Source of the DNA: a virus
IMG/VR virus record: IMGVR_UViG_3300019776_000550
Location: 1-64,000 of that record
Direction: 5' to 3' (one strand)
DNA: 64,000 nucleotides
The translations under genes and the position numbers were made by a program. Below are positions 9,701 to 51,431 of this stretch, piece by piece (within the stretch, counting starts at the first letter, position 1; each line of letters starts with the position of its first letter). Below the pieces are notes generated by a model that did no database searches, had not been told where the DNA came from, and worked only from the letters and a program-made list of their open reading frames with translations.

Positions 9701-12700
9701 TAGATAACGATAAAAAGCGATTTATAGAGTTTATTAACGATAGTTATTATCGTGAAAAAATGATAAATGAAGTTCTTAATCCTGAAGATTTTAATGATGA
9801 CCCTGACCTTAAACAACTTATCATTGATAATAACAGTAACGCAGTCGCATCTTATTTTGCTGTAGCGGTTCATACTTACATGGAACATTTGGAAAAAACA
9901 AATCCTTTTTTAGCTACTAAAGCATATAACACGTTTAAATACAGTGAAATATTATCATTTGCAAAAGCTTATTTCAACAACGTTCTTAAAACAAATATTG
10001 AAGAAGAAATTGATGAAGAAGAAGCTTCAACTACAAATGATATTAGAAAAAAAGGAGATGCTGAAACTGACTTCTTTACAAGTAGCTTAACTAAACTTCG
10101 TTTGTTAATTGTAAATGAAAGTGACGGTACAGAGTTTGGACATTTAAATCCTGCTACTTTTATGAGCATGATTTATAATCATATCAGAGATGCTAATGAG
10201 GATATATCTGATTACAATAGTTTTAAAAATAACTTAATAAGTTTATTAAGTAATAAAAATTTAGCAGATAGATACGGTAAAGAATACACAAATGGTTTAA
10301 GAAACATAATTCGATTATTAGATATGGATAAACCATTATCTGATAAAACTGATAAACATACTGTTAATTTACAGAATTTATTATTTGAAGTATTTTCTAA
10401 AGTAGAAAATGAATTTCAAGTATTAAAAGCTATATCAAGTGATGAAATAAAAAATAAATATAATACAGAAAATATAAATGATTTAAAAAAGACAATCCAA
10501 TCATTAGATTCTGAATTACTTTCTAAAATAGAAAATGAATTTGGAGTATCAAAAGCTATATCAAATGACAAAGGTATAATAAGAGCTTTTGTTAATCAAA
10601 CAATTGAAAAACAACATGATGCTATTCAAAAAAGAGTTAGAGATTCTATTATAAAAGAATTAGTTAATGGAAATTTAACATTAGATTCAAAAAAGAGAAG
10701 TTCAGCAGAAATAGCTCGTGTAGCTAATCAATTATTTGGCACAAATATTTATACAGAAAGTATGTTTTCATCTGCTGATTATGCATCTTCTAAGTTAGCT
10801 AATAGCATGTATCATACTATTAATCACATTTTAGATGGTAGAACTAGCGATAAACCTACAGTAAAAGAACGTGAACAACAAAAAGCTGAAAGAGCTGATA
10901 ATATTGCTAAAATATTAGATTATAATAAATCATCTATTGACAGAGTTGTGGCAACAATAGCTACAAGTGAAGGTTTAGATAAAGTATTTAATATTCGTAA
11001 TGCAGAAGGTTCTCCTCAATATAGTTTATCAAATTATTCTAGCGCACATAAAAGACTTGAAGATTACAAGAAGAAAGAAAACCCTTTAAAATCTGATTTA
11101 GAATTTACTAAATTAGTTTTAATGAATGGAGTTCAAACTAAGGGTAATGAAACAGAAGGTATTACAGCTAATAAACTTAATCAGCTTGATATTTTACTTT
11201 ATTATATTGAATCAGTTTTGAAAAACAAAGTTCTACCTTATGCTTTTAGTGGTGATAAATCAACATTATTAGGTATTAAAGCAAAAGGTTATGTTTTTGA
11301 AGATGATTATGATTTTACAAGAGTTTATAGTAAAATTCTTGATAAAGAAATAGCTTTCTTGCAAGCATTTGAAGGTAAAGAAGTTTTTCAAAAGATGAAG
11401 TTAGAACTTCCTACATTTGAAATTTTAAAACTTTCAAATTCTAAATTATACACTCAATTACTTAATGCTGTTAATAATAATACTTTAACCGATAATTTAA
11501 GAGAAGAAGCTATTAAAGCTTTGATTAAACATAATGAAATAAAAGGATATGAGTTAGCTGCTTACATTAAAGATAAAACAGGAGTTGAGTATGCAGAATC
11601 ACAGCTAGTTAAATTTTATAATATTTATACAACATCAATTGCTGAACAAACTAATGAGCTTACAGGCTCTCTTAATTTTTATAGTGATTTTGCTAAACGT
11701 GCTTATGCTTTATCATCTACTAAGATTAATCTTAGATTAGATGAAGAGTTTGTAAATTGGTACAATTCAAAATATAGCAAAGGTTTATATAAAATAAATG
11801 CAAATGAATTAAAATCAGTTGTAATTAATGATGTTGAAAGAAAAGCATTTGCAGCTGAATTAGGTGACTTTGATAATGCAGCTGATGCACAAGGTTACAT
11901 GCACTATCATTCTGCTAGATTTATGCTTGTGTCTAGTGGTAGATGGAATGAAAAACTTGATATGATTTTCAAAGATTTAGATAGATTAGAAGCTAAAACT
12001 CTTTTAACTGAATCAGATATAAGTCAGCATAATGATTTAATTGAAAAACTTAATGAACAAGTTAGTGTATTAAAACCTCAACATTTTGGTTTTCAAAATT
12101 ACAATGGTGTTGACGTACCTACTTTTTATAAGTTATCAGTATTACCACTTTCTAAAGTTATTACAACAGGTAGTAATTTAGATGTTGTTAGACAACTTAT
12201 GTTAAAAAGTGGTGTTGATTTAGTAATGTTTGAATCAGCTAATAAAGTTGGTAGAAGAATAGATAATGGTACTATATCAATGTATGATAAAAATGGTAAT
12301 TTTAATTTAGGAAGAGTTGTTAAATTAAATGTTAATTCTTATGATGGTAATATAAAACCTGATGAAAATACAGTATTTGTATTTGGAGCAAATCCTGAAT
12401 TTAGACATGGAGGAGGAGCAGCTAAAGTAGCCGTTGATAAATTTGGTATTCAAAACAAAGAATCTAAATCAAATAACGCTTATGGTTTAATTACTAAAGA
12501 CTTGATGGGTTATGGTAACTTTGATGAAAGCATTCTTGAAGTATCGGCTTTTGGAGGAGTTTACTATGAATCAGAAGGAGCAACTTTTTGGCCTGATTCT
12601 GTTGATTATAAAGGAGTGCGGTATCAAAAATTAGATGATGGAACTACTACTGTAGGAAAATTAGTTGAAGGTAAATATAGAAAAGGCAGTCAATTTGAAA

Positions 12701-15645
12701 GACCTTCTTATGGCGGCAAATGGCTTCATAAATTACCAAAAGCTTTTATTGAAGTTAAAATTAGAGAATTTTATGAGGAAGCGGCTAATAATCCTGATAA
12801 ACAATATAAAATTGCATATAATGATGATGTTAATAAAGTATTGTTAAATGGTTATACAGGTATAGAAATGGCTGAAATGTTTAAAGCAGCAGGTGATATT
12901 CCTAATAACGTTTTGTTTAGTAAAAAATGGGTAGATGCTGATTTATTCAATAAAGTAGAAAAGCTCGATGAAAATAATATAGAAGATTTTTTACAATATT
13001 CTCATTGGAAGTACATGGGTATTCAAGTTGAAATGCCTTTAGCTCACGAAAAAGTTACTTTTGGTACGCAGTTTCGTAAACTTGTTACTGAAAGTATTCC
13101 TGACGGAATTACATTAAGAAATTATGATAGACCATTAAGTGGTGATGAACTTATTGCAATACATGAAAATCTTATTTTAGAAAAAATTAAAGCTGACACG
13201 GAGAAGTTCAAAGCTCGTTTTAAACTAAAAGATGATTTTACTTTTGGAGAAATTGTAGATAAGAAAGATAGAGAAGAGTTTAAAAAACAACTTATTCAAC
13301 AAGCTACTAGTAGAGAAGTTCCTGAAAGTTTTATTCAAGCTCTTAAAGATAATAACTCTTGGGATTATATTATGAATAAATCTACATTACAAAAAATTCT
13401 AAATGCTTCTATTCGCAATAACTTGATTTCACAAAAGATGACAGGTGATGCTAAAGCAATGGTAAGTAGTGTAGGTTTTGAAAGAGCTAATAAATCTATT
13501 GATTATAGTAACAGACTTCAATTTTATTCAGATACAAATGATGCAATTGAAGTGTTATTACCATATGAACATAGAAAAGCTTTTGTTAAATATACTGTAT
13601 TCAAAGATGGTTATTATCAACTTAGTCCTGATACACCTAGAGAATTAACTGATTTGATAGGGTATCGTATTCCAACACAAGGTCACGCTTCTATTGATAA
13701 ACTTAGAATAAAAGGATTTTTACCAGCAGATTATGGTAATGCAATTGTAGTACCTTTTGAACTTAGTAAAAAAGCAGGTAGTGACTTTGACATTGACAAG
13801 TTAAATATCTTTTTTCCTAAGTTAAAAAATAATGAATATGATACTGAATCTATTGAAAATAAGATTTTAGAATTTTATAATGATGTTCTTTCTTCACCTG
13901 AATATCGTAAATTATTGATGACTTCAATTGATAATAGTGAAATTAAAGATATTATTACAGGAGAAATTGAACCTGCACAAGGTAGTAAGAAGCTTAATGA
14001 TGGTTATTTAATGTTTGACCCATTAAAAGCTGTTGAAAGAAGATATAGCTTTATGAGTGCTAAATCAACATTAGGTAGTGTTGCTCTTCATGCTACTCAC
14101 CATGCTGAATCTCAAAAACATAAACTTGGTATTAGAGTTAGACACACTGTTAATAGTAGAGGAGGTGCTTTAATTACAAAAGTTGATGGTGTAAGTTTAA
14201 TAGATTTGCTTAACTTATTTGAAAGCGGTAGAAATATTAATAATACATATAAAGATTCAGATTTTATACCTCTTTATAATACAGATTCACCATTAGTAAG
14301 AAATGGTGAATTTGTTAAAATATCTGATATAATAGGTCAATTCATTAACGCAACTGTAGATGCTGCTAAAGATGATTATATTACATCTGCTAATATTGAT
14401 ATGAATACTATCAATACAGTTTTAATGTTAATTAGAATAGGAATGCATCCAAGAGAAGTATTAATGATGGTTAGTAATAATGCTGTTAAGCAATATGCAG
14501 AACTTAAAAGAGCTAGAACTGACTTAACTTACGACTCATCACTTATTGATATGAAATTAGAAGCGTTAATATCAAAAGCTAATAATGAAGCTTCTTTTAA
14601 AGGTTTGAATAATGAAACAGCATTAAACTCATTAAAAGAAACTGATTATGGTATTTTAAAAACTTATATGGCTTTAGAAAAATGGTCTGAAAAACTTTCT
14701 GATTTAATGAACATTAGTAACTTTGATACTAAAGGTACTGGTAAAAGCATTGAAGAAAATGAATATAGACAACGCAAGTTTGAACAAAGTAAATCTGATT
14801 TAAAAACTTATTTTCATAACTTTGATAATTCTATTAATCCTGAAAATAGTTTTCAATCAGCATTTAGAGAAATTGCATTTAAAGCTAATAATTTTACTGG
14901 ATTAGCATTTGGTTTAAATAAACTTTATTATTCTAAAACATCTGATGGTAAACCTCAATTTCCTGAATATTATGATGCACTTAATAAATATGCTTATGAT
15001 GAAAAGATTAATGTAGGTTCTACAGAATCAGGTTTTGATAAACTTAAAAGACTATCTGCTGATGAAAGAACTTATAGAGCTAATAGATTTAAACAAATGT
15101 TTTTAACAGCATTGTTACAATATAATATCATTGCTAAAAATAAGTTTGAACAGCCTGATTTAAAATCAATTTATGCAAACCTTAAAGCTAATTTACCTAC
15201 TGGATACTTTAGAAATAAATTATTATTCTTGGATAATGCAGAAGGAGTGTCTGGACAACAAGCAATTGTTTTAAATGAAGGTGCGTCTTTATCAGTAGAT
15301 GAGTCTAATAGAATATCATTTGCATTTGAAGAATTGTATAGAAATAAGCCTGAATTAGCAAAAGATTTGGTTATTTTTAGTATATTCCAATCGGGATTAA
15401 TGAACAGCCCTGTAACTCTTTATCATATTTTACCTGAACATATTATTAAAGAAATTTCAGCACCTGTTGGAAGTAACGATAATTTATTTGATGCATTGAT
15501 GCAAGCTGGTACTAAGTATAATAGCAAGCTTATAGGATATTTAGTATCAGATGTTGAAAATAAGTTAAAATCAAGTAGAAATAAGTATAATAATAAAGTA
15601 GCTGATATGGCTGTTAAAAAAGGTATAGAAATCTGTAATAAGTAA
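3784..15645 (+). CDS. Giant virion-encapsidated DNA-dependent RNA polymerase (crAss-type) with zincin protease domain
   Basis: GSDFDIDKL catalytic motif at ~13783, YRIPTQG at ~13663, DAQGY motif, zincin HEEFH...EELLAEGF at ~9304; 3953 aa. Confidence 0.9.
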   Translation: MGKQLSKAAQDALSYYQNQEVINAPNTELDGSKYLKGFSETNLNSINDYKANKQIWYEGLTNSLVKNTAKAGIRFVDGFGGVATALTDIVTNNSLSSAIEGEDMAAKREGVTGVLETIYDNPFSKNITRPLEAWLDEQLPVYQTEAQQQSYNPLNLGFLDKALDGVAYIAGMAGGAKFATLGAKGLGKAAKFISAAAREGKDLNYVKTLFGESTSLLDDLAKSKNSPVKELATNLWDDMFGAMVESGAEAAETKKTIFENLKNKALAENKGLPLTKEQEAELEKQASVGGAANFLVNMVTTGMANNVVFKPLLKTKWLDDVIGNTAIKNEMINPNFIGKKGTDYILDKTVKNQKLYERLFKSDVTKNILTEGTQEGVQFASNDYFVNLLSEPSKESVDELGDLYAAVTRGGLETFMKTAQNMGSVDAVHSMLIGSLLGGGSSALQNIANRKDIDANTQAAIDYANRNSLNNKDVTEGIKYFAKSKEYAQVADAAVRNGDRLTYETAKYLGFANYINARVSMNKFDDVVSELNELKSVPLDKFKEQFDMTYEKGFDEKKRNEMIDYALAVANQIKTSQTKIMSNFGHKINALEAKNPDNKKLLPFLTSLDILRENYTTRENELIDKFKANGVDYTAFQKKEASDEQIAAKQGNLAELQKQLTDIQGNKDLDPKDKLAQINEISNKIVKASDDLQRTVTEGTYKELFRKELTDEYKPQVDDKTQSFIYETYSKDLNDFVAIQTAKEKLIDFYSRITKDESYAEKVVKKLTARKNDTEIAKMFTVSGNLVNKPKVTKKTNDDGKEEEISEDNYVFEEGQAQGDLGREEYIKTGDVYQLNRSIYGYNKGYSQASNKAAAKNKGETYEMFEVVDTKTTVLPDGSLKGEVQVSNNKGYKEWIDVRDFKKIIKPMGQSATAPIKMNNRSEEYKFYQEYNDRAVRFTRDGVTYIGKIALPRVRTTKDGKLVVKAGTYDIIYLDKDGKQKTIQGISFNNNLNRRLNIKSIEILSKNLSNLIDLKLNAEFYISNLLKTIKTKEEKINNYKQKLKALNANDGSVKNIADDIKQLLATSIANEINTRESDVEVLKDSIKNLKLFADKDEAFDLDNPLPKVIQEALDTVQAYRDSNAQLKESDKQKLLKEKLKLINEERKIIAEKLGEISEAIKASLPKDELTQNILDKNDNLTDALLEIIDSQAESPSKDATFVDLYKQLLTKEIELAEIRKELEDDLYDKIAQETGILSPKAIKLGELDAMISFWNYTTNKGYRYSSGYPKWYSKNFHDDADFDVSVSESDNADESIIKTKAPSDPSKISGKYADEKRNFFKYFYSVPVDNVNPINLEVEVDGDTIYLKFEHNKIPMVTTLQSSVKDGSPLAKFRESLKEAYAKNQADGKKTFITPNGKFSAFQKGSVNKPIQEVFKGIDFDIEVAEGKIGEEDVIMEVNKVFYNVKNGRPYVINRKLGILQPVIVGTLAEAKIKDKKGNVFTLADTIFNYITYIKLSKDKVSDNDYQNRIKSFYMHLNSFVFTANSNSIGTQADMVKGAIDIIEAGGEWSLVYLDADGNKQKIDIFDEDGVSKLAKEQIERRLVNPKLETENFKYDNKFSPFVTFIVNENGLPLPVKLDKDDSYTYATFLKESAGLKSNLEVQDITTNPTYFKGGYFTFDVDSKPVVNINNFSPRRIIKKESAQESAAEIPPVVNTKASRRIIKKKDVTDTTSSFDFGATSAQESAAEEADETSSAEVPPVVNTMASRFSVTKNRFQKEADDKSDDSDNFFNKQSLEIAGTARLRDMTTSELEAARDKFENKYGVNFELVNGLINGRAWGMVTKAGEVFISDTAPLGTDYHEEFHLVSQHMLTKSELNDLYAEARNRYGNLNDYELEELLAEGFRMYALGYNGFVGKIAYYFNKLINGIKLLLGIKGTPIEQLYSDILYGKYYAKPVYEGTVRNSQVLSYDEKQEISSHITKFVLHTIKTAGLDNDKKRFIEFINDSYYREKMINEVLNPEDFNDDPDLKQLIIDNNSNAVASYFAVAVHTYMEHLEKTNPFLATKAYNTFKYSEILSFAKAYFNNVLKTNIEEEIDEEEASTTNDIRKKGDAETDFFTSSLTKLRLLIVNESDGTEFGHLNPATFMSMIYNHIRDANEDISDYNSFKNNLISLLSNKNLADRYGKEYTNGLRNIIRLLDMDKPLSDKTDKHTVNLQNLLFEVFSKVENEFQVLKAISSDEIKNKYNTENINDLKKTIQSLDSELLSKIENEFGVSKAISNDKGIIRAFVNQTIEKQHDAIQKRVRDSIIKELVNGNLTLDSKKRSSAEIARVANQLFGTNIYTESMFSSADYASSKLANSMYHTINHILDGRTSDKPTVKEREQQKAERADNIAKILDYNKSSIDRVVATIATSEGLDKVFNIRNAEGSPQYSLSNYSSAHKRLEDYKKKENPLKSDLEFTKLVLMNGVQTKGNETEGITANKLNQLDILLYYIESVLKNKVLPYAFSGDKSTLLGIKAKGYVFEDDYDFTRVYSKILDKEIAFLQAFEGKEVFQKMKLELPTFEILKLSNSKLYTQLLNAVNNNTLTDNLREEAIKALIKHNEIKGYELAAYIKDKTGVEYAESQLVKFYNIYTTSIAEQTNELTGSLNFYSDFAKRAYALSSTKINLRLDEEFVNWYNSKYSKGLYKINANELKSVVINDVERKAFAAELGDFDNAADAQGYMHYHSARFMLVSSGRWNEKLDMIFKDLDRLEAKTLLTESDISQHNDLIEKLNEQVSVLKPQHFGFQNYNGVDVPTFYKLSVLPLSKVITTGSNLDVVRQLMLKSGVDLVMFESANKVGRRIDNGTISMYDKNGNFNLGRVVKLNVNSYDGNIKPDENTVFVFGANPEFRHGGGAAKVAVDKFGIQNKESKSNNAYGLITKDLMGYGNFDESILEVSAFGGVYYESEGATFWPDSVDYKGVRYQKLDDGTTTVGKLVEGKYRKGSQFERPSYGGKWLHKLPKAFIEVKIREFYEEAANNPDKQYKIAYNDDVNKVLLNGYTGIEMAEMFKAAGDIPNNVLFSKKWVDADLFNKVEKLDENNIEDFLQYSHWKYMGIQVEMPLAHEKVTFGTQFRKLVTESIPDGITLRNYDRPLSGDELIAIHENLILEKIKADTEKFKARFKLKDDFTFGEIVDKKDREEFKKQLIQQATSREVPESFIQALKDNNSWDYIMNKSTLQKILNASIRNNLISQKMTGDAKAMVSSVGFERANKSIDYSNRLQFYSDTNDAIEVLLPYEHRKAFVKYTVFKDGYYQLSPDTPRELTDLIGYRIPTQGHASIDKLRIKGFLPADYGNAIVVPFELSKKAGSDFDIDKLNIFFPKLKNNEYDTESIENKILEFYNDVLSSPEYRKLLMTSIDNSEIKDIITGEIEPAQGSKKLNDGYLMFDPLKAVERRYSFMSAKSTLGSVALHATHHAESQKHKLGIRVRHTVNSRGGALITKVDGVSLIDLLNLFESGRNINNTYKDSDFIPLYNTDSPLVRNGEFVKISDIIGQFINATVDAAKDDYITSANIDMNTINTVLMLIRIGMHPREVLMMVSNNAVKQYAELKRARTDLTYDSSLIDMKLEALISKANNEASFKGLNNETALNSLKETDYGILKTYMALEKWSEKLSDLMNISNFDTKGTGKSIEENEYRQRKFEQSKSDLKTYFHNFDNSINPENSFQSAFREIAFKANNFTGLAFGLNKLYYSKTSDGKPQFPEYYDALNKYAYDEKINVGSTESGFDKLKRLSADERTYRANRFKQMFLTALLQYNIIAKNKFEQPDLKSIYANLKANLPTGYFRNKLLFLDNAEGVSGQQAIVLNEGASLSVDESNRISFAFEELYRNKPELAKDLVIFSIFQSGLMNSPVTLYHILPEHIIKEISAPVGSNDNLFDALMQAGTKYNSKLIGYLVSDVENKLKSSRNKYNNKVADMAVKKGIEICNK

Positions 15646-15661
15646 TAAAAATCTATCAAGC

Positions 15662-18600
15662 ATGAGTTGTCAAGTAACTATTGAGAATGGATTACCTTCT
15701 AAAGTACATTCTACTAATGGGCGAGAAAGTAATCTTTATAAGAATTTGTTAGATTATTATAAAGGAGATTCTGTTACAGCTTTTGAAAAGTGGGCTGATT
15801 TAAATTCTAATAAAGATTTATTAGGTTTAACAAACCTTGATTCAAACGGAGAACCTATTGTAAATAACAATTTATATCTTGATAATGATATAACAACTCT
15901 GCTAGATTTTTATGCAAATGAATCTAATAATAGATATGCAGATAGTAAAGTTGTACTTAATCGAGTATTAAAAAATCTTAAAGCTAAATATCCCAAGTTA
16001 GCTAATAATATATACCCTGTAAAAGTACCTACAGGAGGAGGTTATGCTTATAAATTTGATTTAAAAAGTGATAATGTTTATTATCAACTTGGTAATAGTC
16101 AAGTTAAACCTGGAGTAGAAGAGTTATTTGATTCTAATCCTGAGTTAGCTAATATAGGTACTGCTGAACAATACTCTCAATACTTAGATACCATATTTCC
16201 TGATAGTAAAGTAAAGGATATTGTTTATCATGGTACTAAATCAAATGAAGTAAGAACAATATTTGATAAAAATACAATACAAAAAACAGGAGTTGGTTTA
16301 GGAAAAGGATTCTTTTTTGCAGGAGATAAAAGTTATTCTCAAAGAGATGTATATAGCTACAAAACAATTGGCTCATATCTATTAAATTTAAAAAATCCTA
16401 TTTTTGGTTATCCTAATACTTTTATAGAAAAAAATAGAATTAACGATGTTCCTAAAGAATATCTTGAACAATATTCTGATGAAAAAGAATTAAAAAATTT
16501 AGATGCTTCTGAAAAAACAGAATTAATGCAAAAACTTGGATACGATGGTGTTGTTTATAAACAAGGAGAATACGCTAATGAAAATGTAGTATTTGAACCA
16601 GAACAAATCCACATACTAGGAAGTAAAAAAGATATAGAAGGATTTAAAAAGTTTGTTAATCAAAATCAATTTCAACAAAAACAATCTAATCAAAAGCAAC
16701 CTTCTGATAGTAAGCTCAATGCAAAAATTAAAACACTCTTGGAGGCTATTGGTGTAAGAGTTGATTATATTGAGAACAGTAGATTCAAAGATACAGGAGC
16801 TTTAGGTGTAGCAGATATGTTAGCTAAAGTAGCTTATGTATCTATGAACAAAAGTCGTATTGATACTCTTCCTGAAGAAGCAGCTCACTTTTTTGTTGAT
16901 TATATTGAACAAATTAAAGACCCTTTGTTTAATTCTATGATGTATGATATTGAAAAATATGATATATTTATGGAAACTTATCAACAATATAAAAATACTT
17001 ATACAAAAAGCGACGGAAGTCCTGATATGTATAAAATTAGAAAAGAAGCTATTGGTAAAATGATAGCTAAAATTATTGTTGATAGAAATAATGTAAATGA
17101 ATCACAAGGATTAATTGATAGATTTACAAGATGGCTTGATAAAGTTTTAGATAAATTTAAAACTCAATTAGCTAAAATAGGATTAATTAATGAAGCTGCT
17201 GTAGAAAATTATTTTGAATTAGCAGCTAGTAATATTCTTAAAGGTAAGTATCAAGGTGAATTTAATGCAAATAATAATTATTATAACCAACAACTATTGA
17301 CAGAGTCACAAAGAAAAAACATAGCTAACTTAAAGCAATCAGATAGCAGATGGAGTAAGTATAGTGACGAAGATATACAAAGATTTATTGATTCTGTATT
17401 TCCTAATAGCAAAGTAAAAGATATTGTTTATCATGGTACAAAAAATAAATTTGATAATTTTGATATTACCAAATATAGATTTGAAAAAGCTATTTTCTTT
17501 TTTAAAGATTATATAAATGCTTTAAAATGGGAAAGTAATTCATTTACTATAACAAAAAGAGATTTAAGTAATATATTTAAACTAAATGAAGAAATAAATC
17601 TTGATGATAATAGTATAGAAAATAATATTTTTCATGCTTTAGCAGGTGCTGACAATATAGAACAATTAAAAGAACTTCCTAATTACGAATTGTTAATAGA
17701 AGATTTTAATAAAATAGGAGGTGTTGATATTTATTTAAATAAAAATCTTAATGAAATCAGGTTAATTTTAAATAAATATATAAATAAAAACCAAAATAAT
17801 GTTATTTCTGCGATATTAAATTTAAAAAATCCCAAACAAGCTTCTAATTTAAATTATATTAAACAAAGTAAAGAAGGGGAAGAAATTAAAAAAATTTTTA
17901 ATGATGCTTCTAAAAATAATGATGGTGTTATATTAGAAAATATAACAGAATATACATCTTCTTTAAAAGATGCTGAAAAAAATTATAAAACTAAAACTGT
18001 TACTTTTAATGGAATTTTTGGAATACAAACTGATGATTTATATTCAGTAAATACTGATACTCAATATGCAGTATTTGAACCAAGTCAGATTTATATTCTA
18101 AATTCAGATAAAGCTATATCTGATATGGAAAGATTTGTTAATGAAAGTGCTTATTTTCAGCTTAGTAATGAACAAAAGAAATTAGATGCTATTATTACTA
18201 AAAGAAATGATGAAATACGAACAGTAGAAAAAGCAGATGGAAATGATATAAAAGAGATACTTAAAGATGGAGTTTGGCAATATATTAAACGAGTATCAGA
18301 AGTTGTTAAAGCTAAAGGTAAGTATTATAATAATACACAAGAACTGACAGATGTACAAAAGAAAGCCAATGATAATAAAGCTGCTTTTGGTACTAAAGTT
18401 CACAATGATATGATGATTTTAGTAAATAAAGCTTTAGGTAAAACTGACAATAGACCTTTAATGCTTAATTCAGCTTATCATGCAAAAATGAATCGTTTTA
18501 TAAAAGCTATTATTGAAGAATTTAATCCTGACACACATGAATATTATACAGAAGTAAACATTCACAATGGTAAACTTGCTGGTACAATTGATTTGATTAT

Positions 18601-21600
18601 AATAGATTCAGAAGGAAGAGCTAATATATTTGATTATAAAACATCAACTGGTATAATTGATAGACCTAATATTGCAAAATCTTATACTGACAAGTGGTAT
18701 GAGCAACTTATGCAATATAGAACTATATTAAAAGATTACGGAGTAACCAAGTTTGGTCAAACTCGTATGATACCTATTAACGTTAATTTTAGTGATAAAG
18801 TAACTGCAAAAGAAGGTACAGACTTAGTAACTGAATTTCAAATAGGTAATAACAAATACAACGACGAAGAAGGTTTTCAAAATCTTAATCCAGTACCTTC
18901 ACCAGATGAAAGAACTGGAATTACTAACATTGATAAAATGATTAGCAAAATTGAAGACAGGATTCGTCAATTAAGTGCTAAAAGTGATAGTGAAAGTAGA
19001 TATAAAGTTGATGAATTAAAACGTGATATTGCTAAATTACAAGTTAGTAAAAATCTTGACGTAATTAAAAACCAAGCAGAAATTGATTTAAATATTATTA
19101 AAGGTTTAATTAAGAAATCAGAAAGTGAAAGTTTAACAAGTGAAGAAATTTTTAACTTGTTACAACTTTATGATTATTATGAAGATAGACTTAAAGAGAA
19201 TTTAGTTTTTGATAAAGATAAAAAAGCTATACCTGAAATATTAGAAACTTCGGGTTATGTGCAAGAGCAAAAAGAAGTTATTGATAACATTTTAAAAGCT
19301 TATAATAATACATTTGAGGTAACAGATGAAATTATAAAACCTTCTAGTTGGTGGAATAGATTATATAAATTATCAGATTATGATATTCCTGCATTTCAAG
19401 GTTTGTACAAACTTTTTAATAGAATAGCTGCTCAAAAAGAAATAAAAGTTAGAAAACTTAAAGAAGAAGTTAAAGATATAATTGCTCAAATTAAAACTGA
19501 AACAGGTAAAAGCGGAGTCGATATGTTTTTACCAATTTTACAAAAGGATAAAAATGGTAAACCTAATGGTAAACTAATTGCTCAAAAGAAAGCTGAATGG
19601 TTTACTTTTGTTGACGATAATCAAAAAGGTTTGTATAAAAATCTTGATTCGTTTTCAATGAGTCATATTAAAAATACTCCATTAGGACAATATGTGAAGT
19701 TAGATGAACTCAATGAATACTTTAAAACTAAATTAACAGAAAAAGCAAAATCATTAGAATCATCTTCTGATACTTATAAAGCAGAAGCATTAAAAAGATA
19801 TAAAGCTTTTCTTATTAGTGTTACACTTGGTAAAGCTAATTCAAAGTTTTATGATACTGAAAATGCTAATTTTGATAAATTCTTAAATCCTGAGTATGTT
19901 ACATACATCAGAAGTAATCCTAATGGGGGATTAGCAAAGATTTATAAAAAAATAGTAGAACTTAATCAGTATGCTAATCAACATGCTGACGCTGATATAA
20001 GACATACTAACTTAATACCTTATGTTCGTAAAGGTACAGTTAGGAATTTTATAGATAGTGGATTTAATCTTAGAGCTTTAAGAGACAATGCACTTGATGA
20101 CCTTCGTACAGAAGAGTGGGAATCGTTTGAATTAGATTCACAAGGTAATAAAATATATAAAGTTCCACTTCAATATAATACAAGTGAAAGTAAAAGAGAT
20201 GTATCACAACAGTCATTTGATTTAGGTGAAGTTCTTGTTTTATGGGCTGATGCAGTTTATGGTAATGAACTTTTACAAAATCAACATGATACATCGTTGT
20301 TGTTTTTAGAAGGACTTAAAAGAAGCAAAGAATATGTAACTCAAAATGGTAAGTTAGTTACTAAAAATGGAGAATATGCAACTAAAAATACAGATTTTGA
20401 AACTATTCAACAATATATAGAATATCATAACAATTTCTTTTATGGTCAATCATCTAAAGATGAAGATAGTGAATTATTAGGAATGAGTAGAAGAAAAGCA
20501 GTTAAAGCTGTTAGTAAACATTTTTCAGCTACTCAATTAGCAATAAATTTATTTTCAGGATTATCTAACCTTACAGGAGGATTAGTAGGTGCTTATTCTT
20601 ATGCTGGAGATGAATTTAAAAAATCTGATTATACTAAAGCACAATATCAACTTACATTAAAGAGTATTTTTAACAAGGATTCTAAAGTTTATGCAGCAAT
20701 TAAAATGTTTGATGTAGATTCAAATGTTTATGATGCTAGTAATTTTAAAGATGTAAGTGTTGATAAAATTAATAAATTCTTTACTTGGGATAAACTTTAT
20801 ACTTTACAGAAAAAAGGAGACTGGTTGTTGCAAAATGCAACATTAGTAGCTATGTCACAGAATTATACCATTAAAGATAATAAAATAGTAAAAAAAACAG
20901 ACGGAGATAAAAACCTGTTAGAACTATTAGAAGTTAATGATAAAGGTCAGTATAGATTACCAATAGCTAATGAAGAGGAATTATTTAGATTTAGAGAAAA
21001 AGTAAGAGCTGTTAACTCTCAAATTATAGGTAATACAAGTGAATATGATATACAACTTGCTGGAAATACTCTTACTGGACAACTATCACTTCAATTTCGT
21101 AGATGGATGTTACCAATAGGAACAAGTAAATTTGGTTCTCTTAAATATAATGCAACTTTAGAAAAAATGACTTATGGTAAATACAGAAGTACTGGCAAGC
21201 TTGTGTGGGAAACCATGATAAAAGAAAAAACTCTTAAACCTATATTTGAGTTTATTAAGAATACTAAAAATGGTAAATTAGATTTATGGTTATTAGAAAA
21301 ATATAATGAAGACCTTAAAATTAACCCTAAACTAGGTAGCTTTGATGATTATAGAAATCTATATTTTAGAAATATGAAAGCTACTTTGATGGAAGCTACT
21401 ATTCTACTGGGTATTATAGGACTTAAAGCTGGTTTAAAAGGTGATGATGATGAAGAAAAAGAAGCTTGGCAAAAAGTATTAAATCGTATTTTAAGTAGAA
21501 CAGTTGCTGAAAACAGTTTTTGGTTTAATCCAAATAGCTTTTTTGAAATTGTACAATCACCTATTCCTATGATTAATTTTGCTAGAAATATTTATGATGT

Positions 21601-21745
21601 ATTTACAATACCAAAAGATGTTTATGAAGCATTTATTTTAGGAGAAGAAGATGTTTTTGATAATTATGATAAGTTTGGAAAATTAATAATAGGTTACAAC
21701 AGTTGGTTGTCTTTTATGAATGAAATAGAAAAAGATAATGAGTAA
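15662..21745 (+). CDS. Large polyvalent virion/ejection protein (two ART-like modules, degenerate zincin, PD-(D/E)xK nuclease)
   Basis: Two VYHGT...LNLKNP...DGV...VFEPxQI modules; PEEAAH; GTKVH...AGTIDLIIID...IFDYKT...QLMQY. Confidence 0.7.
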   Translation: MSCQVTIENGLPSKVHSTNGRESNLYKNLLDYYKGDSVTAFEKWADLNSNKDLLGLTNLDSNGEPIVNNNLYLDNDITTLLDFYANESNNRYADSKVVLNRVLKNLKAKYPKLANNIYPVKVPTGGGYAYKFDLKSDNVYYQLGNSQVKPGVEELFDSNPELANIGTAEQYSQYLDTIFPDSKVKDIVYHGTKSNEVRTIFDKNTIQKTGVGLGKGFFFAGDKSYSQRDVYSYKTIGSYLLNLKNPIFGYPNTFIEKNRINDVPKEYLEQYSDEKELKNLDASEKTELMQKLGYDGVVYKQGEYANENVVFEPEQIHILGSKKDIEGFKKFVNQNQFQQKQSNQKQPSDSKLNAKIKTLLEAIGVRVDYIENSRFKDTGALGVADMLAKVAYVSMNKSRIDTLPEEAAHFFVDYIEQIKDPLFNSMMYDIEKYDIFMETYQQYKNTYTKSDGSPDMYKIRKEAIGKMIAKIIVDRNNVNESQGLIDRFTRWLDKVLDKFKTQLAKIGLINEAAVENYFELAASNILKGKYQGEFNANNNYYNQQLLTESQRKNIANLKQSDSRWSKYSDEDIQRFIDSVFPNSKVKDIVYHGTKNKFDNFDITKYRFEKAIFFFKDYINALKWESNSFTITKRDLSNIFKLNEEINLDDNSIENNIFHALAGADNIEQLKELPNYELLIEDFNKIGGVDIYLNKNLNEIRLILNKYINKNQNNVISAILNLKNPKQASNLNYIKQSKEGEEIKKIFNDASKNNDGVILENITEYTSSLKDAEKNYKTKTVTFNGIFGIQTDDLYSVNTDTQYAVFEPSQIYILNSDKAISDMERFVNESAYFQLSNEQKKLDAIITKRNDEIRTVEKADGNDIKEILKDGVWQYIKRVSEVVKAKGKYYNNTQELTDVQKKANDNKAAFGTKVHNDMMILVNKALGKTDNRPLMLNSAYHAKMNRFIKAIIEEFNPDTHEYYTEVNIHNGKLAGTIDLIIIDSEGRANIFDYKTSTGIIDRPNIAKSYTDKWYEQLMQYRTILKDYGVTKFGQTRMIPINVNFSDKVTAKEGTDLVTEFQIGNNKYNDEEGFQNLNPVPSPDERTGITNIDKMISKIEDRIRQLSAKSDSESRYKVDELKRDIAKLQVSKNLDVIKNQAEIDLNIIKGLIKKSESESLTSEEIFNLLQLYDYYEDRLKENLVFDKDKKAIPEILETSGYVQEQKEVIDNILKAYNNTFEVTDEIIKPSSWWNRLYKLSDYDIPAFQGLYKLFNRIAAQKEIKVRKLKEEVKDIIAQIKTETGKSGVDMFLPILQKDKNGKPNGKLIAQKKAEWFTFVDDNQKGLYKNLDSFSMSHIKNTPLGQYVKLDELNEYFKTKLTEKAKSLESSSDTYKAEALKRYKAFLISVTLGKANSKFYDTENANFDKFLNPEYVTYIRSNPNGGLAKIYKKIVELNQYANQHADADIRHTNLIPYVRKGTVRNFIDSGFNLRALRDNALDDLRTEEWESFELDSQGNKIYKVPLQYNTSESKRDVSQQSFDLGEVLVLWADAVYGNELLQNQHDTSLLFLEGLKRSKEYVTQNGKLVTKNGEYATKNTDFETIQQYIEYHNNFFYGQSSKDEDSELLGMSRRKAVKAVSKHFSATQLAINLFSGLSNLTGGLVGAYSYAGDEFKKSDYTKAQYQLTLKSIFNKDSKVYAAIKMFDVDSNVYDASNFKDVSVDKINKFFTWDKLYTLQKKGDWLLQNATLVAMSQNYTIKDNKIVKKTDGDKNLLELLEVNDKGQYRLPIANEEELFRFREKVRAVNSQIIGNTSEYDIQLAGNTLTGQLSLQFRRWMLPIGTSKFGSLKYNATLEKMTYGKYRSTGKLVWETMIKEKTLKPIFEFIKNTKNGKLDLWLLEKYNEDLKINPKLGSFDDYRNLYFRNMKATLMEATILLGIIGLKAGLKGDDDEEKEAWQKVLNRILSRTVAENSFWFNPNSFFEIVQSPIPMINFARNIYDVFTIPKDVYEAFILGEEDVFDNYDKFGKLIIGYNSWLSFMNEIEKDNE

Positions 21746-45939: not shown

Positions 45940-47266
45940 TTAATATACTACATTGTTCAATCTCAATGATTTAAGATTTTGTTTCTTAATCCATTGTGAA
46001 TTATTGAGAACAGATAAAATCTGTTTACGTGCGTCATAATATGACTTAGCATGTACAGATATGACAAATTCATATCTAGTATTTCCAAACTGTTTATCTT
46101 TACTTTCTGTTTCTCTACCTGTATAACTACAAGTATTTACTTTAGAAATTGAAATTTGTTTACCAAATAAATCTACAATACCCGTGTATATCATAATTTA
46201 AAATAATTGTTTTCAATTTCTTTTTCATATTCAACATGTTCAATAGCTTGTTCTATGTTATGAGGACATGTACTTTGTACTCTTTGATTGTTTCTCACAA
46301 TCATTTTAAGAGTATTACGTAGATGATTGATGTCCATAGCATCAATATCTACATATTTTCCATCTTTAGTTCTCCAATATACTTTTTCCATTGTCATAAA
46401 TTTTTTAAAAAGGAAGTGATTTTTCACTTCCTTTTGTTTGATTTACATCAACCACTTATTTGCATTTTGTTGATGGTATTCAACCATCAAGTTAGCTTTT
46501 TGTGGATTCAAATAAATCCACATTTGCTTCGCCGTTTTGTACTCATCGTACACTTTCTTTGCATTTATGCAAGTAAATTCGTACATGTCAATAACATGTA
46601 CAACTTGCTCTACGTTTTCTCCTCCTGCTGCTTTAGGAAGAGTGAAGTAGAATACCATTTCTCCTATACAAGCGGCAATTTGAAAATTGCCCTTGCAGAA
46701 AATCTTTCCTGTTGGAAATACAGCGGTGAAATTTAATTCACCATTTCCAAACGTCTTTGTGATTTTAATTCCGTTAATGTTATTCATGTTCTTCTATGTT
46801 TAGTGATGTTAAAAATGAAACCATACCCACGATACATAAGTTGTATGTGGCAAAAAATAATTTAACATAAGAGACATGAATGTCTATTACATTAAAAAAT
46901 AAATATTCTGCTAATATCAATAACACATATATAAAAAGTGTCATTAATATTATAAAAATTAATCTTGTTATTTTCATTTTTTTTTTGTGATTAAAATAAA
47001 ATATTCCTATTCAGTAAAACTAAATAGGAATATAATCATTTGTCCATCATTTATCTGAAATATACGAAAATGTCGTCGTATATTTCAGATACAACCACTA
47101 CTGCTCCAATAAGAGCAAACATTAGACCGCCACCTATTAAATAGGCGACTGACATTATTACTTCATGGTAATTAATGTCAAATATAAGACTGATAAAGGC
47201 TGCAGGAATTACGAATAGAATAGACCATACAGCTACAAATCCAATAAGACAAATTAATGCTTTCAT
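45940..47266 (-). CDS. Cluster of small early ORFs (45940-46194, 46191-46427, 46443-46787, 46780-46977, 47051-47266)
   Basis: Small co-oriented ORFs; the last two are hydrophobic two-TM proteins. Confidence 0.55.
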
Positions 47267-47298
47267 TTTATTTTTTTTTTTTTTAAGGTTTATGTTCT

Positions 47299-47369
47299 TT
47301 TTTCTTCACTCTGCTTTTTACAAGGACTTGTGACCTTCTATATTAAATATAGGTAGCATTAAAGAAAAA
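47299..47369 (-). ncRNA. Twister ribozyme (type P1, with P3)
   Basis: Minus strand: UUUUUCUU UAA UGCU AC CUAUA-UUUAA-UAUAG AAGG UCACAAGU CCUU GUAAAA AGCA GAGUG AAGAAAAA. P1, P2, P3 and P4 pair; both pseudoknots (CAC/GUG and AC/GU) pair. Confidence 0.9.
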
Positions 47370-47406
47370 GCATCTATTCTCCCAACAGATGCTTTGAATA
47401 GTTGTG

Positions 47407-47547
47407 CTACACTTTTACACAACTAAGAATCAAGGAACTTTCATCCTTAATAATAGAAATAGCTTCCATAACAGAAGAAGCTTCAATTTCCATATTAAGA
47501 ACAATAATTCCTGTTCTCAGACGGTAACTTACTAAATACTTGTTCAT
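47407..47547 (-). CDS. Small early ORF (46 aa, not in track)
   Basis: MNKYLVSYRLRTG...LSCVKV*. Confidence 0.55.
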   Translation of the reverse strand: MNKYLVSYRLRTGIIVLNMEIEASSVMEAISIIKDESSLILSCVKV

Positions 47548-47580
47548 AGTATTAGGTTTAAATGTAAGAAAATAGAATTA

Positions 47581-47751
47581 CTATTGAATTTTAATAATTC
47601 CGTCATAATCTACGGAATATATCAAAAATCTTTTATCTCTTATCTCTCTCCAGATAGAAGCATTTTTCAGAGTTTTTAATCTTTCTAACGCATCTTCTAA
47701 TGATTCAAACCATATATATTCATAGTCTGAATTAAATATAAAGTATTCCAT
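47581..47751 (-). CDS. Small early ORF (56 aa, not in track)
   Basis: MEYFIFNSDYEYIWFESLEDALERL...IIKIQ*. Confidence 0.55.
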   Translation of the reverse strand: MEYFIFNSDYEYIWFESLEDALERLKTLKNASIWREIRDKRFLIYSVDYDGIIKIQ

Positions 47752-47824
47752 AATAAACAATTAAAAATGAATAAAACAGAATTGTGACAGTTTCTAAGAT
47801 AACTGACAAAACTTATTGTTTGCA

Positions 47825-48240
47825 TTACAATATTGTAACACCTGTTAAAACTCTTGAAGTTGTATTATTTACAACTTCATAAAATTCCCAAACCATGTCT
47901 CCATTGTTATAATTAAACATAGAGACATAAATAGAATTAGAATCATAACATTCTAATTCTATAAATTCTTTCCATGCTTTTTCCAAACCATTTTCATGGT
48001 TTGTATGAGTTGGGAAAAATTCAATAAATTTCAATTCTTTCAACATAAATCTTCTATTTTTAAATCTAAAACTGGAAGTTCTTTTACTATTTTGTAATAA
48101 TAACTTTCTGAGTCATCAGTAGGTTGATTATTAACAAAATTCTGAACTTTTTCTAAGTCTTTTTCTTGTATCTTACCTAGTAAGATATTTTCATCACAGT
48201 GTCCTTTACCGTGATAATAATATTTGAATAAATACATCAT
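47825..48240 (-). CDS. Two small early ORFs (47825-48046, 48040-48240)
   Basis: ORF track; poly-A run immediately before the 48240 start. Confidence 0.55.
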
Positions 48241-48544
48241 TTTTTTTTTTTTGATTTAATTACACAGCTTAAAATAAAATAATTACAATTGTATGATTTA
48301 ATGCAAGTAGTTTGATTAACTTCTCGGAACTAACTTTCATAAGAATTTCTTCTTATAACCAGTACATCCTTTGCACATACAATTGTAATTAATTGTTTTT
48401 AAATGTTCGGTTGTGTCTGTTTTGTATATCACAACTTTATCTTACACATCTATTGAGAAACCTCCAATGTCTCAAATGTTTTTCAATGTGTAAACCAGAT
48501 GCTTTACTTCAAACATTTCAAAGCTTCAATGGAGTTTGTAAGCT

Positions 48545-48670
48545 TTGAATAACAATGACCTTTTAACTTACATGATTTTCTCATGTAAAACTTTTATAAA
48601 AGTAGTTTCAAGATTTATTTAGACACGTTTATCTCATCATCAGATTGTTTTCGTGTATATTTTAATTCAA
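48545..48670 (-). ncRNA. Hammerhead ribozyme, type I
   Basis: Minus strand: AACAAU CUGAUGA U GAGAU-loop-AUCUU GAAA C...GUC AUUGUU. Stem I AACAAU/AUUGUU extends via UUGAAU/AUUCAA. Stem-I bulge ACACG is complementary to loop-II CGUGU. Confidence 0.85.
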
Positions 48671-49030
48671 AACTTAATAATAAAACAACAACTCTAGGTG
48701 TACATATCATAGGTAGTGAGCCTATGTACATATTTTTCACAGTTGAGCGTTGTTGCTTTATTATCTACTTCTAATAACATCAGTTGTCTTTTGTTATTAG
48801 ATTCACCTTCTGTTCACTCTAAGCAAGTACGTGTTATTGTATTAACACAATGCGATATGAGCATAAACAGTTTTCATCTCCTTATTTAAGGGAAACTAGG
48901 TTAGTCAAAAAAAAAAGAAGTAGTTTATTCTTTCAGATGTCTTTTAAAAAGACGGAAAGATGGACACAGCTGACATTGTAAGCAGTCCTACTTCTTTTAC
49001 GTAATCCTACCATCATGTCACTAGGTAGGT

Positions 49031-49095
49031 TTCCCACTCAACCTTCTATCATTATGATAGCTAACCCTTGTGAAGTTAGAATGAGGTTTTAAGAA
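49031..49095 (-). ncRNA. Putative variant twister ribozyme (type P1, with P5)
   Basis: Minus strand: UUCU UAA AACC UC AUU CUAAC UUCACAAGG GUUAG CUAUCA-UAA-UGAUAG AA GGUU GAGUG GGAA. L4 has one extra U and P1 is short. Confidence 0.6.
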
Positions 49096-49149
49096 TCGTT
49101 AGTTTTATTCTGTTGCCAAGAAAAACTAACAAAAAACTCCGAATCTTAT

Positions 49150-49500
49150 TCAGTCGCAGAGTTCAGACCTAACACAACCTGAATGTGCAAATGGAAATCC
49201 ATCATACATTCCACCTCCGCAATGACTACAAGTAGTCTCTGCAAAAGTGTCATGGATTTTTTCCATTGCTTCATTGGTTGCTGGTTCAGACATCAACTCT
49301 AGCAATACTTTCCTTAAATCATAAGGATTATGGACTTTGTAAGTATTATGCTCACAATCCATAGCGTATGCAGAGTCAATATTCTCATGCGTTATGTTTA
49401 TACACTTATTATTGTAATAAGCTGATAAGCAATAAACATGAGGTAGTCTGTGACCATTAAAGTCTAAACCAAACTGCTCTACAAGGACTAATTCTGTCAT
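49150..49500 (-). CDS. Small early protein with C-terminal CxxC
   Basis: Likely start MTELVL at 49500; CSHC...H..C motif. Confidence 0.5.
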   Translation of the reverse strand: MTELVLVEQFGLDFNGHRLPHVYCLSAYYNNKCINITHENIDSAYAMDCEHNTYKVHNPYDLRKVLLELMSEPATNEAMEKIHDTFAETTCSHCGGGMYDGFPFAHSGCVRSELCD

Positions 49501-49642
49501 TGTTTTACAATTTAATTTAAAAAGTTTTTCTACTAACATAACTTCTAGTAGATAAAGTGATACTAATTACCTGTTGATTCTCAAGATGTATCAAGTCTTG
49601 ATTCCTTATACTCAGTTAGCAGGTTCTGAGTTTAGGATTGAG

Positions 49643-50008
49643 TTACAGAGTAACCACTTTCTCTCTCAAATTACGAGAGACATGGTTTCTCAATGTCTGC
49701 AAATCTGCCTGTTCTTTACAGACAAACTCTCCATTTGCTTCTCTAACAAGAGTAGCAATAATAGGAAAGTTCCCTGTAAGTCCATGCAGTGCTACTAATA
49801 CCATAGTAGCTAATGCAGACATTCCTGGAACTGCTACCGTAACAACAGTATTACTTTCAACCCCTAAAGATTGAAGATACTTTGTTACAGCTTCCAAATT
49901 TTCCCCAAATGGTTTTTCAGGGTTAATTTGAACAGTTCCATGAAACTCAAATCCTAATTCATCAAGACTCTTGTTAAAGTGTCCTGACAAGTTAAGTTTC
50001 TTGTTCAT
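49643..50008 (-). CDS. Csx15-like (type III CRISPR accessory, CARF-related) protein
   Basis: LNLSGH...PGMSALATMVLVALHGLTGNFPII...F...DLQTLR...R resembles my recollection of the Csx15 consensus (NFSH..PGL..A..LAELHGR.G.FP...NLQ..R). Likely ATG at 50008. Confidence 0.65.
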   Translation of the reverse strand: MNKKLNLSGHFNKSLDELGFEFHGTVQINPEKPFGENLEAVTKYLQSLGVESNTVVTVAVPGMSALATMVLVALHGLTGNFPIIATLVREANGEFVCKEQADLQTLRNHVSRNLREKVVTL

Positions 50009-50196
50009 TTTTAAGGAACGTAGGAAACTAATGTGTTCTATTCTAAGTAAGAACACTTAACTTGCAACCACTAAAGTAGGTTACTTTCACTTTGTAGCAT
50101 ATTTAAAAATCTGGAGGTAATGCTACTTAACCTCACTGTTAGCTTTTTATATAAAAAAGCTAAAAAAACAAAAACAAAAAGAAAAAAAAGCTAGGA

Positions 50197-50427
50197 TTAA
50201 CCTAGCTTGAATTTCTGGATGATAGCGTCTAACACGCTATCAGCAACACCGTAACCATTTGCGTATTCAATAACACTGACTTCTGCATCAGTGAATTTCT
50301 CCGCGATACATATTAACGTTTGCGAAGCTTTTGACAGCTTCTCGTAAATTTCGTCGGTGACTTCCACACCTTTTCTGCCCGATACCTTTCTATCGGTATC
50401 TTTAACATCTAACTTTATCTGAGCCAT
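50197..50427 (-). CDS. First gene of the leftward (early) unit, hypothetical
   Basis: 76-aa ORF with an overlapping terminator-like hairpin at its 3' end. Confidence 0.6.
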   Translation of the reverse strand: MAQIKLDVKDTDRKVSGRKGVEVTDEIYEKLSKASQTLICIAEKFTDAEVSVIEYANGYGVADSVLDAIIQKFKLG

Positions 50428-50439
50428 TTTCTTTTTTGT

Positions 50440-50880
50440 TTAAAGTTTATTGGGGGTACAACCCCTCGCAATTTCAGTAGGGGGTGGCTAAGGTAAGTAG
50501 TTCCTCAATCAGCAAATTTCCACAACTTCTATTAAAATTATGATGTCTTCATTCAGCAAATCTTTTTGTAGCACTATAATCAGCTAGGGGGGTCTTTTAG
50601 TATATTAATCCAAAGTACCTTCTTTTGTAGTAGGGATATTAGGTATATCATGTTCAGCAAGTGTATTTTTAATGTCAATTCTATTGTTCTAATGGGGGTT
50701 ATTCAGTAGGTTTTTGCTGTTTTTGGCTGTTTTCATTTTAAAATAGTTTTTTTAAGTATATGGAAAACGGTCATTTTAAGCTACTTTTAGAGTTAACTGC
50801 CTGATTATCAATCAGTTTACTATGTCAAAATTATAATTTTACTATGTCAATATTTTGACAGTTTTTTCGCTATATTTGTA
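50440..50880. promoter_or_regulatory. Divergence region: candidate origin/promoter zone
   Basis: Non-coding between divergent blocks. Six WTCAGYW repeats, G-runs, TTTACTATGTCAA direct repeat, Bacteroidota-type -7 box TATATTTG at 50871. Confidence 0.55.
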
Positions 50881-50888
50881 CAAATCAT

Positions 50889-51431
50889 TTGATAAAAATG
50901 AAGATAAAAGAAGTAATAAAAATCAATAAAGTAGCTGTAAAAGTAAGAGATGTAGATATAGGTGTTAATCCTTTCATGAAAGATGTAAATATTAAAGTAT
51001 CTGTAGTAAATTTAGAAGGTGATTATGTTAAAGAGGATGATTTATACTTACCAAATAACACTTATATTGAATCAGAACCTTATACAAAGATTTTTATAAA
51101 TGCTGAAAACAGAAAAATTGTTAATAAATTAACACAACGAGGTAAAGATTTGCTATTATGGTTGCTTTATGAGATGGAAGCTGGTCAAGATTTTATTAAA
51201 ATTAATAAAGTTAGATATATGAAAGAATTAAGTATCAAATCTGTTAATACTTATAAAACAGCTTTATCAGAATTAATAAGATATGGTATGTTAAAGGAGT
51301 CAAAAGCAAAAGATATATACTGGATTAATTCACAATTCTTTTTTAATGGTAATAGAATCAAGAAATATAAAAAACAACTGATAAATAAAGATGGCAATAG
51401 AATTAATAATAAAGAGAAAGGCGTTTCCTGA
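50889..51431 (+). CDS. RepL-like replication/regulatory protein (winged-helix)
   Basis: S.NT...ALSELI..G......YWIN..FFFNGNRI motif. Confidence 0.72.
   Translation: MIKMKIKEVIKINKVAVKVRDVDIGVNPFMKDVNIKVSVVNLEGDYVKEDDLYLPNNTYIESEPYTKIFINAENRKIVNKLTQRGKDLLLWLLYEMEAGQDFIKINKVRYMKELSIKSVNTYKTALSELIRYGMLKESKAKDIYWINSQFFFNGNRIKKYKKQLINKDGNRINNKEKGVS

Follow-up and report, generated by a model that had tools for sequence, protein, structure and literature searches.

The phage studied here encodes a 121-aa protein that is a member of the Csx15 family, with a sequence similarity far beyond chance. Judging from its residues and those of its relatives, we consider it probable (about 0.65) that the protein is a stand-alone, catalytically complete Csx15 which serves a non-temperate phage as a cyclic oligoadenylate (cOA)-binding anti-defence protein. 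Its role would most likely be the removal of the cyclic oligoadenylate alarm of the host, either by cleavage or by sequestration. The analysed stretch of viral DNA comprises 64,000 nucleotides and is referred to as the window; positions are those of the window.

An earlier note on this DNA had described a phage-encoded Csx15-like protein of 121 aa. The reading frame is present on the minus strand, where it begins with an ATG at 50008 and ends with a stop codon at 49643-49645:

49643..50008, minus strand: csx15-like gene, 121 codons plus stop (coding part 49646-50008)

An alternative GTG start at 50056 would extend the ORF to 137 aa. One reason to prefer the 121-aa form is that 35/35 members of the Csx15 subfamily start close to its ATG, at most a few residues away; another is that the catalytic histidine of characterised Csx15 proteins is found at residues 8-13. 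The motif that the earlier note had given for the family was found as well (PG at 61-62, LVALHGLTGNFP at 71-82 and DLQTLR at 102-107). On the NCBIfam model NF040560 (CAS_Csx15), which is a Csx15 equivalog model with a curated cut-off of 35 bits, the protein scored 48.1 bits (E 1.2e-12), and in a six-frame search of the genome with the same model the csx15 gene reached 47.5 bits. All 35 subfamily members match this model. The PADLOC model for Csx15 matched the 121-aa protein with an E value of 7.6e-8. Among PDB sequences the protein matched solely the two Csx15 crystal structures, i.e. 9tet (PfCsx15 of Pseudomonas fluorescens) and 9teu (CliCsx15 of Chlorobaculum limnaeum), with E values of 2e-5 for chain 9tet_A and 7e-4 for chain 9teu_A; these improved to 5e-11 and 5e-9 when the subfamily profile was used. 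Hence, the Csx15 identity and the profile similarity proposed as its check both held, since the NCBIfam model, the PADLOC model and the PDB chains all match. The 121-aa protein had no match in Pfam and none in PHROGs. The gene is under purifying selection, as indicated by a dN/dS of 0.03 against the copy in L002, a 136-kb IMG/VR phage record (98% identical protein; dS 0.26), and of 0.15 against the copy in another phage, L003 (70% identical).

The residues that mutagenesis papers have tied to cA4 binding and cleavage are all present in the phage protein (S8/H10, H75, F95 and R107/R112/R115). We mapped them with HMMER alignments and with Chlorobia-type cellular Csx15 sequences taken from genomes, one of which is nearly the 9teu sequence. 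The counterparts are as follows:

S8/H10 of the phage protein: H13 in CliCsx15, S9/H11 in PfCsx15, H8 in HaCsx15
H75: H90 in CliCsx15, H82 in PfCsx15, none listed for HaCsx15
F95: Y113 in CliCsx15, from the profile alignment
R107/R112/R115: R125/R129/R132 in CliCsx15, R116/R120/R123 in PfCsx15, R118/R122/R125 in HaCsx15 (by spacing)

The head-surface motif N6-L-S8-G-H10 aligns with the NFSGH of 9tet and 9teu, and H75 lies within LVALHGLTG, which aligns with the LHGL/LHGR of the characterised chains. The aromatic residue flanking the adenine (Y113 in CliCsx15, F106 in PfCsx15) corresponds to F95, which hardly varies across the subfamily. All 35 subfamily members have H10 and R107, and H75, R112 and R115 are retained in at least 90% of them. 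There is one extra residue between R107 and R112; some members of the subfamily have the canonical spacing. Mutagenesis of the characterised proteins has shown that cA4 binding, filament formation and catalysis depend on the mapped positions (10.64898/2026.01.21.700848; 10.64898/2026.10.26.761840).

An AF2 model built from 35 relatives has an alpha/beta fold with a pLDDT of 95.1. When 48,161 PDB representatives were scanned with it, the top matches were cOA-binding CARF and SAVED domains:

6wxq, Csa3 with cA4: Z 6.2
9r8s, viral SAVED ring nuclease: Z 5.9
8bao, Can2: Z 5.6
7qqk, TIR-SAVED: Z 5.3
7rwk, Cap5: Z 5.3

These matches are of middling Z (maximum 6.2), obtained with a fold library that lacks the Csx15 crystal structures 9tet and 9teu. 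Foldseek against the PDB returned nothing below an E value of 1e-3 in a library evidently also without 9tet/9teu, and against BFVD it gave weak matches to uncharacterised viral proteins (best E 1.1e-3, TM about 0.46).

The mechanism we propose is modelled on the characterised homologues (10.64898/2026.01.21.700848; 10.64898/2026.10.26.761840). The phage protein would form dimers, and these would stack head-to-tail once cA4 binds between them; cA3 or related trinucleotides are possible alternative ligands. In the composite site, one dimer would contribute H10 (with S8) from its head, and the next would contribute H75, F95, R107, R112 and R115 from its tail. There, the cOA ring would undergo metal-independent cleavage or would at least be held, and the cOA-activated effectors of the host would stay silent during phage replication. 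Since all residues for cA4 binding and cleavage are conserved, a ring nuclease or cA4 sponge with an AcrIII-1-like role is the best supported reading.

Nuclease and sponge cannot be told apart from the residues, since the inactive PfCsx15 keeps the same ones. PfCsx15 resembles the phage protein in several respects: it is encoded as an orphan outside type III loci, it has the same residues and it is the best single-sequence match in the PDB. PfCsx15 binds cA4 in head-to-tail stacks. It differs in that it is bacterial and reported to be non-catalytic. That the phage protein is likewise a pure sponge, binding cA4 in filaments without cleavage, is in our view improbable. PfCsx15 shares the Ser/His, His and Arg residues, lacks nuclease activity and acts as a stoichiometric inhibitor of a cA4-activated RNase, and phage sponges for cyclic nucleotides are common; however, HaCsx15, CsCsx15 and CliCsx15 all cleave, and PfCsx15 was described as an outlier. 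As the phage clade stands apart from all confirmed cellular sequences, neither a cleaving nor a non-cleaving state can be inferred from its relatives.

Among the cleaving homologues, CliCsx15 is small and stand-alone as well and shares the NxSGH motif, the histidine of LHG, the aromatic residue and the three C-terminal arginines with the phage protein. It was reported to neutralise cA4-dependent type III immunity in E. coli (10.64898/2026.01.21.700848). In contrast to the orphan phage gene, CliCsx15 is part of a type III locus and adjoins Cas10 there, and the same holds for its relatives L139-L143. Moreover, it is 10-20 residues longer, scores 130-148 bits on NF040560 compared to 48 here, and falls on the opposite side of a tree split with 98% support. 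For HaCsx15/CsCsx15, the catalytic H8 and R118/R122/R125 have their phage counterparts in H10 and R107/R112/R115; these two are, however, cellular enzymes of the major Csx15 cluster, and the spacing between the first and second arginine is one residue longer in the phage protein. Both were described as metal-independent enzymes that need the filament for cleavage and act on cA4 as well as on CBASS trinucleotides (10.64898/2026.10.26.761840).

The phage protein belongs to a short Csx15 subfamily of about 115-125 aa. A HMMER scan of 1.84 billion cluster representatives (E up to 1e-3) yielded 128 Csx15-related clusters; the close clusters of the phage protein were all metagenomic. In a maximum-likelihood tree (quick search, 120 rows, 131 columns), a split with 98% SH-aLRT separates a clade of 45 rows, which holds all seven confirmed viral sequences, from a remainder of 75 rows, which holds all six confirmed cellular ones. 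The latter are five Chlorobia-type genes located within a few kb of Cas10 and one protein from a Hydrogenedentes MAG. Apparently, the short clade is confined to viruses. As a viral origin is confirmed for 7/45 rows, this restriction is a strong lead and no proof. Members of the clade are found on 10 distinct IMG/VR records (11 with the present genome) of 11-216 kb, where phage genes for a helicase, a tape-measure protein, replication initiation and homing endonucleases lie near csx15. A tyrosine integrase is absent from 7/8 searchable related records, and Cas10 was found in none of the four related phage records searched.

A further 42 clade loci are located on metagenome contigs. Type III cas families were matched by 0/51 neighbour proteins on 15 of these metagenome loci, and the few neighbours that did match a family look phage-like (ribonucleotide reductase, Dda/PIF1 helicase, tRNA nucleotidyltransferase, DprA). 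One of the 51 matched the TnpB-type models Cas12f1-like_TNB and OrfB_IS605 transposase. On another branch of the clade, six metagenome loci (L150, L153, L156, L159, L162 and L163) have a 118-aa Csx15 with a conserved ORF of 262-265 aa behind it; in L150, L162 and L163 another ORF, of 287-292 aa, comes next. The 262-265-aa ORF had no Pfam or PHROG match. The 118-aa Csx15 and the trailing ORFs may form a linked module.

In cellular genomes and known phages the search for this subfamily was negative. None of 185,579 species genomes yielded a member in a motif scan, although the scan needs two motifs and would miss divergent cellular copies. The subfamily profile detected none of its kind in 301 genomes of the class Bacteroidia, where it found one canonical Csx15 at 38 bits. 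Likewise, tblastn against 50,697 GenBank phage records gave no match to the phage csx15. The earlier note had regarded the gene as captured; as a recent event this was not borne out, since the Csx15 clade to which the gene belongs stands apart and appears to be associated with viruses. We also rejected the idea that the gene had recently been taken from a Bacteroidota host, because the profile search of the 301 Bacteroidia genomes found no such gene and the clade is separate from cellular Csx15.

The window is taken from an IMG/VR record of 91,498 bp (91.5 kb) with direct terminal repeats and an estimated completeness of 100%, which represents an uncultured phage from freshwater. DNA polymerase, helicases, primase, terminase, portal and capsid genes are present. 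The terminal repeats together with these replication and structural genes confirm that csx15 is phage-encoded. No tyrosine integrase was found in the genome, and the phage is non-temperate. The absence of cas genes and of an array, on which the earlier note had remarked, was also seen here, with no CRISPR-like array in the window and no Cas10 in the whole 91.5-kb genome. On these two results we rejected the possibility that csx15 is part of a phage-borne CRISPR system. The assignment to a family different from AcrIII-1 was upheld by the missing Pfam match of the protein and by 0 matches to AcrIII-1/DUF1874 (PF08960) in the genome. Two giant ORFs are located in a rightward-strand block at the left end of the window, one at 3784-15645 (plus strand, 3953 aa) and one at 15662-21745 (plus strand, 2027 aa); they gave only one weak PHROG match, which is of unknown function.

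The csx15 gene lies close to a strand switch, where the GC skew changes its sign at about 50 kb in the window:

50428..50888, no strand: divergent intergenic region between the leftward and the rightward unit, with the GC-skew switch
50197..50427, minus strand: 76-aa ORF, gene 1 of the leftward unit, no family match
50009..50196, minus strand: spacer of 188 nt upstream of csx15, no Shine-Dalgarno motif before the ATG
49150..49539, minus strand: 129-aa ORF directly downstream of csx15, with a Cys-rich C-terminus
49147..50093, minus strand: 947-bp block of csx15, the 129-aa ORF and 85 nt upstream, 92.6% nucleotide identity to L002

Leftward from 50428 the order is the 76-aa ORF, csx15, the 129-aa ORF, an ORF-poor stretch, small ORFs and the replication genes (DNA polymerase, helicases, primase and thymidylate synthase). 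The rightward unit contains RNase H, exonuclease, terminase, portal and major capsid protein genes. Accordingly, csx15 is indeed, as the earlier note had placed it, the second ORF to the left of the intergenic region, behind the 76-aa ORF. From this position in a unit with replication genes it can reasonably be assumed that csx15 would be expressed early. A terminator-like hairpin at 50208-50188, just past the 76-aa ORF, separates the latter from csx15. In the divergent intergenic region we noticed a tandem 22-nt repeat with TTTACTATGTCAA at 50811-50854 and several copies of a TTGCTGA-type motif at 50480-50700. Both may be promoter or operator sites.

The 947-bp block matches positions 9919-10862 of L002, where the genes flanking it are different or rearranged compared to the window. 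The csx15 proteins of the two phages are 98% identical and the 129-aa proteins 88%, while a nearby exonuclease shares 29% identity. The 129-aa ORF accompanies csx15 in L002 and is absent beside the homologue in L003; Pfam, PHROG and Atlas gave no lead on it. In L002 and L003 the csx15 homologue is likewise located just past a strand switch. Such mobility of the block together with the position at the strand switch would be typical of phage accessory counter-defence genes. A 59-nt element that is 83% identical between the phages (window 49034-49092, L002 9854-9911) follows the csx15/129-aa block on the 3' side in the window and directly precedes it, on the 5' side, in L002. Because it is found on opposite sides of the block, it marks the edge of the exchanged segment. 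Its folding (z -1.3) is not better than that of shuffled sequences.

Two further elements were observed on this side of csx15. In the ORF-poor stretch, a 127-nt element (window 48270-48396, minus strand) recurs at 11493-11613 in L002 and at 10446-10539 in L003 with 99% and 80% identity, respectively, despite mosaic flanks. It folds with -33.1 kcal/mol (z -5.7), which is far better than shuffled sequences, and has a closing stem of 16 bp. It may be a conserved non-coding RNA of the phage; a scan of 46500-51000 against Rfam (E up to 1) gave no match for it. Besides, a match to the Rfam twister-P1 ribozyme was found at 47303-47365 (minus strand; E 7.3e-12), on the csx15 strand about 2.3 kb downstream of the gene, with 58.9 bits and thus under the gathering score of 67.2. 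Neither a hammerhead at 48545-48670 nor a second twister at about 49090 was detected by Rfam in 46500-51000 at E up to 1.

DNA of this phage recurs in aquatic and freshwater metagenomes from at least eight studies besides the probable source. In contigs of two metatranscriptome runs and of one doubtful RNA run the flanks of csx15 were covered and the ORF was not. The 3' flank at 49558-49633 was matched by contigs of two metatranscriptome runs of one study, which turn unlike the window at 49633, where the csx15 ORF begins. This break in the contigs hints that related phages carry something else at the position of csx15.

The genomic context also bears on whether the protein has a role in anti-defence at all. 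It could instead be a sensor or regulator of the cOA levels of the host, or bind an unrelated nucleotide ligand. About 25% of the cellular Csx15 genes are found in genomes without type III loci, and Csx15 is also fused to effectors as a sensor domain, for instance to Schlafen in Cash proteins. The phage protein, however, has 121 aa and no second domain to which it could signal, its complete catalytic and binding set is conserved, and the gene is placed and transferred between mosaic genomes in the manner typical of accessory counter-defence genes in phages. Such a sensor or regulator thus seems very improbable to us, and we retain the cOA-binding anti-defence protein as the preferred reading.

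The defence system of the host which might be targeted depends on the host itself. A Shine-Dalgarno-like motif was found in 3/55 genes of at least 80 aa, and the upstream regions are A-rich. Genes poor in Shine-Dalgarno motifs fit the translation initiation of Bacteroidota. The sole cultured relatives found were Cellulophaga phages, which share one gene at about 75% nucleotide identity. Together, the genes without Shine-Dalgarno motif and the gene of Cellulophaga phages hint at a Bacteroidota host. In genomes of this group the following frequencies were found:

Flavobacteriaceae, Cas10-like: 4/401 genomes, none over the cut-off
Flavobacteriaceae, SMODS (CBASS cyclase): 28/301 genomes
Class Bacteroidia, Cas10-like: 21/301 genomes
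Phylum sample, Cas10-like: 42/301 genomes

The target could be type III CRISPR-Cas or CBASS signalling with cyclic trinucleotides. It is conceivable that the main target is CBASS or another cyclic-trinucleotide system, where Csx15 would degrade or hold the cA3 or cAAG made by a CD-NTase. CsCsx15 and HaCsx15 cleave 3'3'3'-cAAG, 2'3'3'-cAAA and cA3 (10.64898/2026.10.26.761840). In addition, the hints at a Bacteroidota host come together with SMODS domains that are seen in more of the sampled flavobacterial genomes than Cas10-like genes. Given these frequencies, a role against CBASS, or a dual one, has to be taken seriously as a rival reading if the phage infects a flavobacterium. On the other hand, Cas10-like genes do occur in the class Bacteroidia, cellular Csx15 is linked to Cas10 and not to CBASS, the symmetric site of the dimer suits cA4 best, and the cyclic dinucleotides used by many CBASS are not cut by Csx15. 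On balance, CBASS or another trinucleotide system as the main target appears unlikely to us, and we favour the removal of the cOA alarm in the wider sense.

Virus-encoded proteins with a comparable proposed role have been described before. AcrIII-1 (DUF1874) has an unrelated fold and belongs to an unrelated family, so that the analogy to the phage Csx15 is limited to the proposed role. The viral SAVED protein AcrIII-2 (PDB 9r8s) is two-lobed with about 235 aa, whereas the phage Csx15 corresponds to one lobe and would need to form a homodimer. A further case is the likewise virus-encoded vCsx15 or 'AcrIII-3', a putative viral ring nuclease known from the Lokiarchaeota virus Skoll (URC17498) and more than 20 metagenomic sequences. 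In October 2026, Klimavicius et al. listed a single homologue from a virus in NCBI, along with over 20 from env_nr and IMG/VR, described such cases as rare and mostly prophage-borne, and proposed the name AcrIII-3 for the putative viral Csx15 (10.64898/2026.10.26.761840); we found no other paper that uses this name. The phage Csx15 is therefore a new instance of a kind already in print. While the vCsx15 of the preprint are mostly located in prophage regions, the present gene is part of a complete, integrase-free genome with terminal repeats. Besides this genome, our analysis contributes the complete set of catalytic residues, the conserved position of the gene, the mosaic cassette, the distinct, apparently viral clade and the point that CBASS is possibly no less likely a target than type III CRISPR.

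The demonstration that Csx15 acts as a cA4 sponge or ring nuclease dates only from 2026. Its use by viruses has been viewed with scepticism. Hoikkala et al. reported that Csx15 is absent from 28,114 phage genomes, and Chi et al. concluded that it is perhaps of no use to a virus against CRISPR. Moreover, both Csx15 papers doubt that a slow enzyme or sponge can cope with the large cOA output of type III systems (10.64898/2026.01.21.700848; 10.64898/2026.10.26.761840). With its gene at the head of a transcription unit of a recurrent phage, the protein offers a clean test case for this question. If it is inactive, this would support the view that the kinetics of Csx15 are unsuited to viruses. If it is active, a third family of viral type III anti-CRISPR ring nucleases would be confirmed, and cross-inhibition of CBASS might be shown as well. 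A more far-reaching idea, which we regard as tentative and rather doubtful at present, is that the short Csx15 proteins form a virus-restricted lineage, exchanged as a cassette by large phages of Bacteroidota-like hosts, that disarms both type III systems (cA4) and CBASS with trinucleotides. If this were true, broad-spectrum viral nucleases for cyclic oligonucleotides would overturn the printed view of Csx15 as too slow for viruses.
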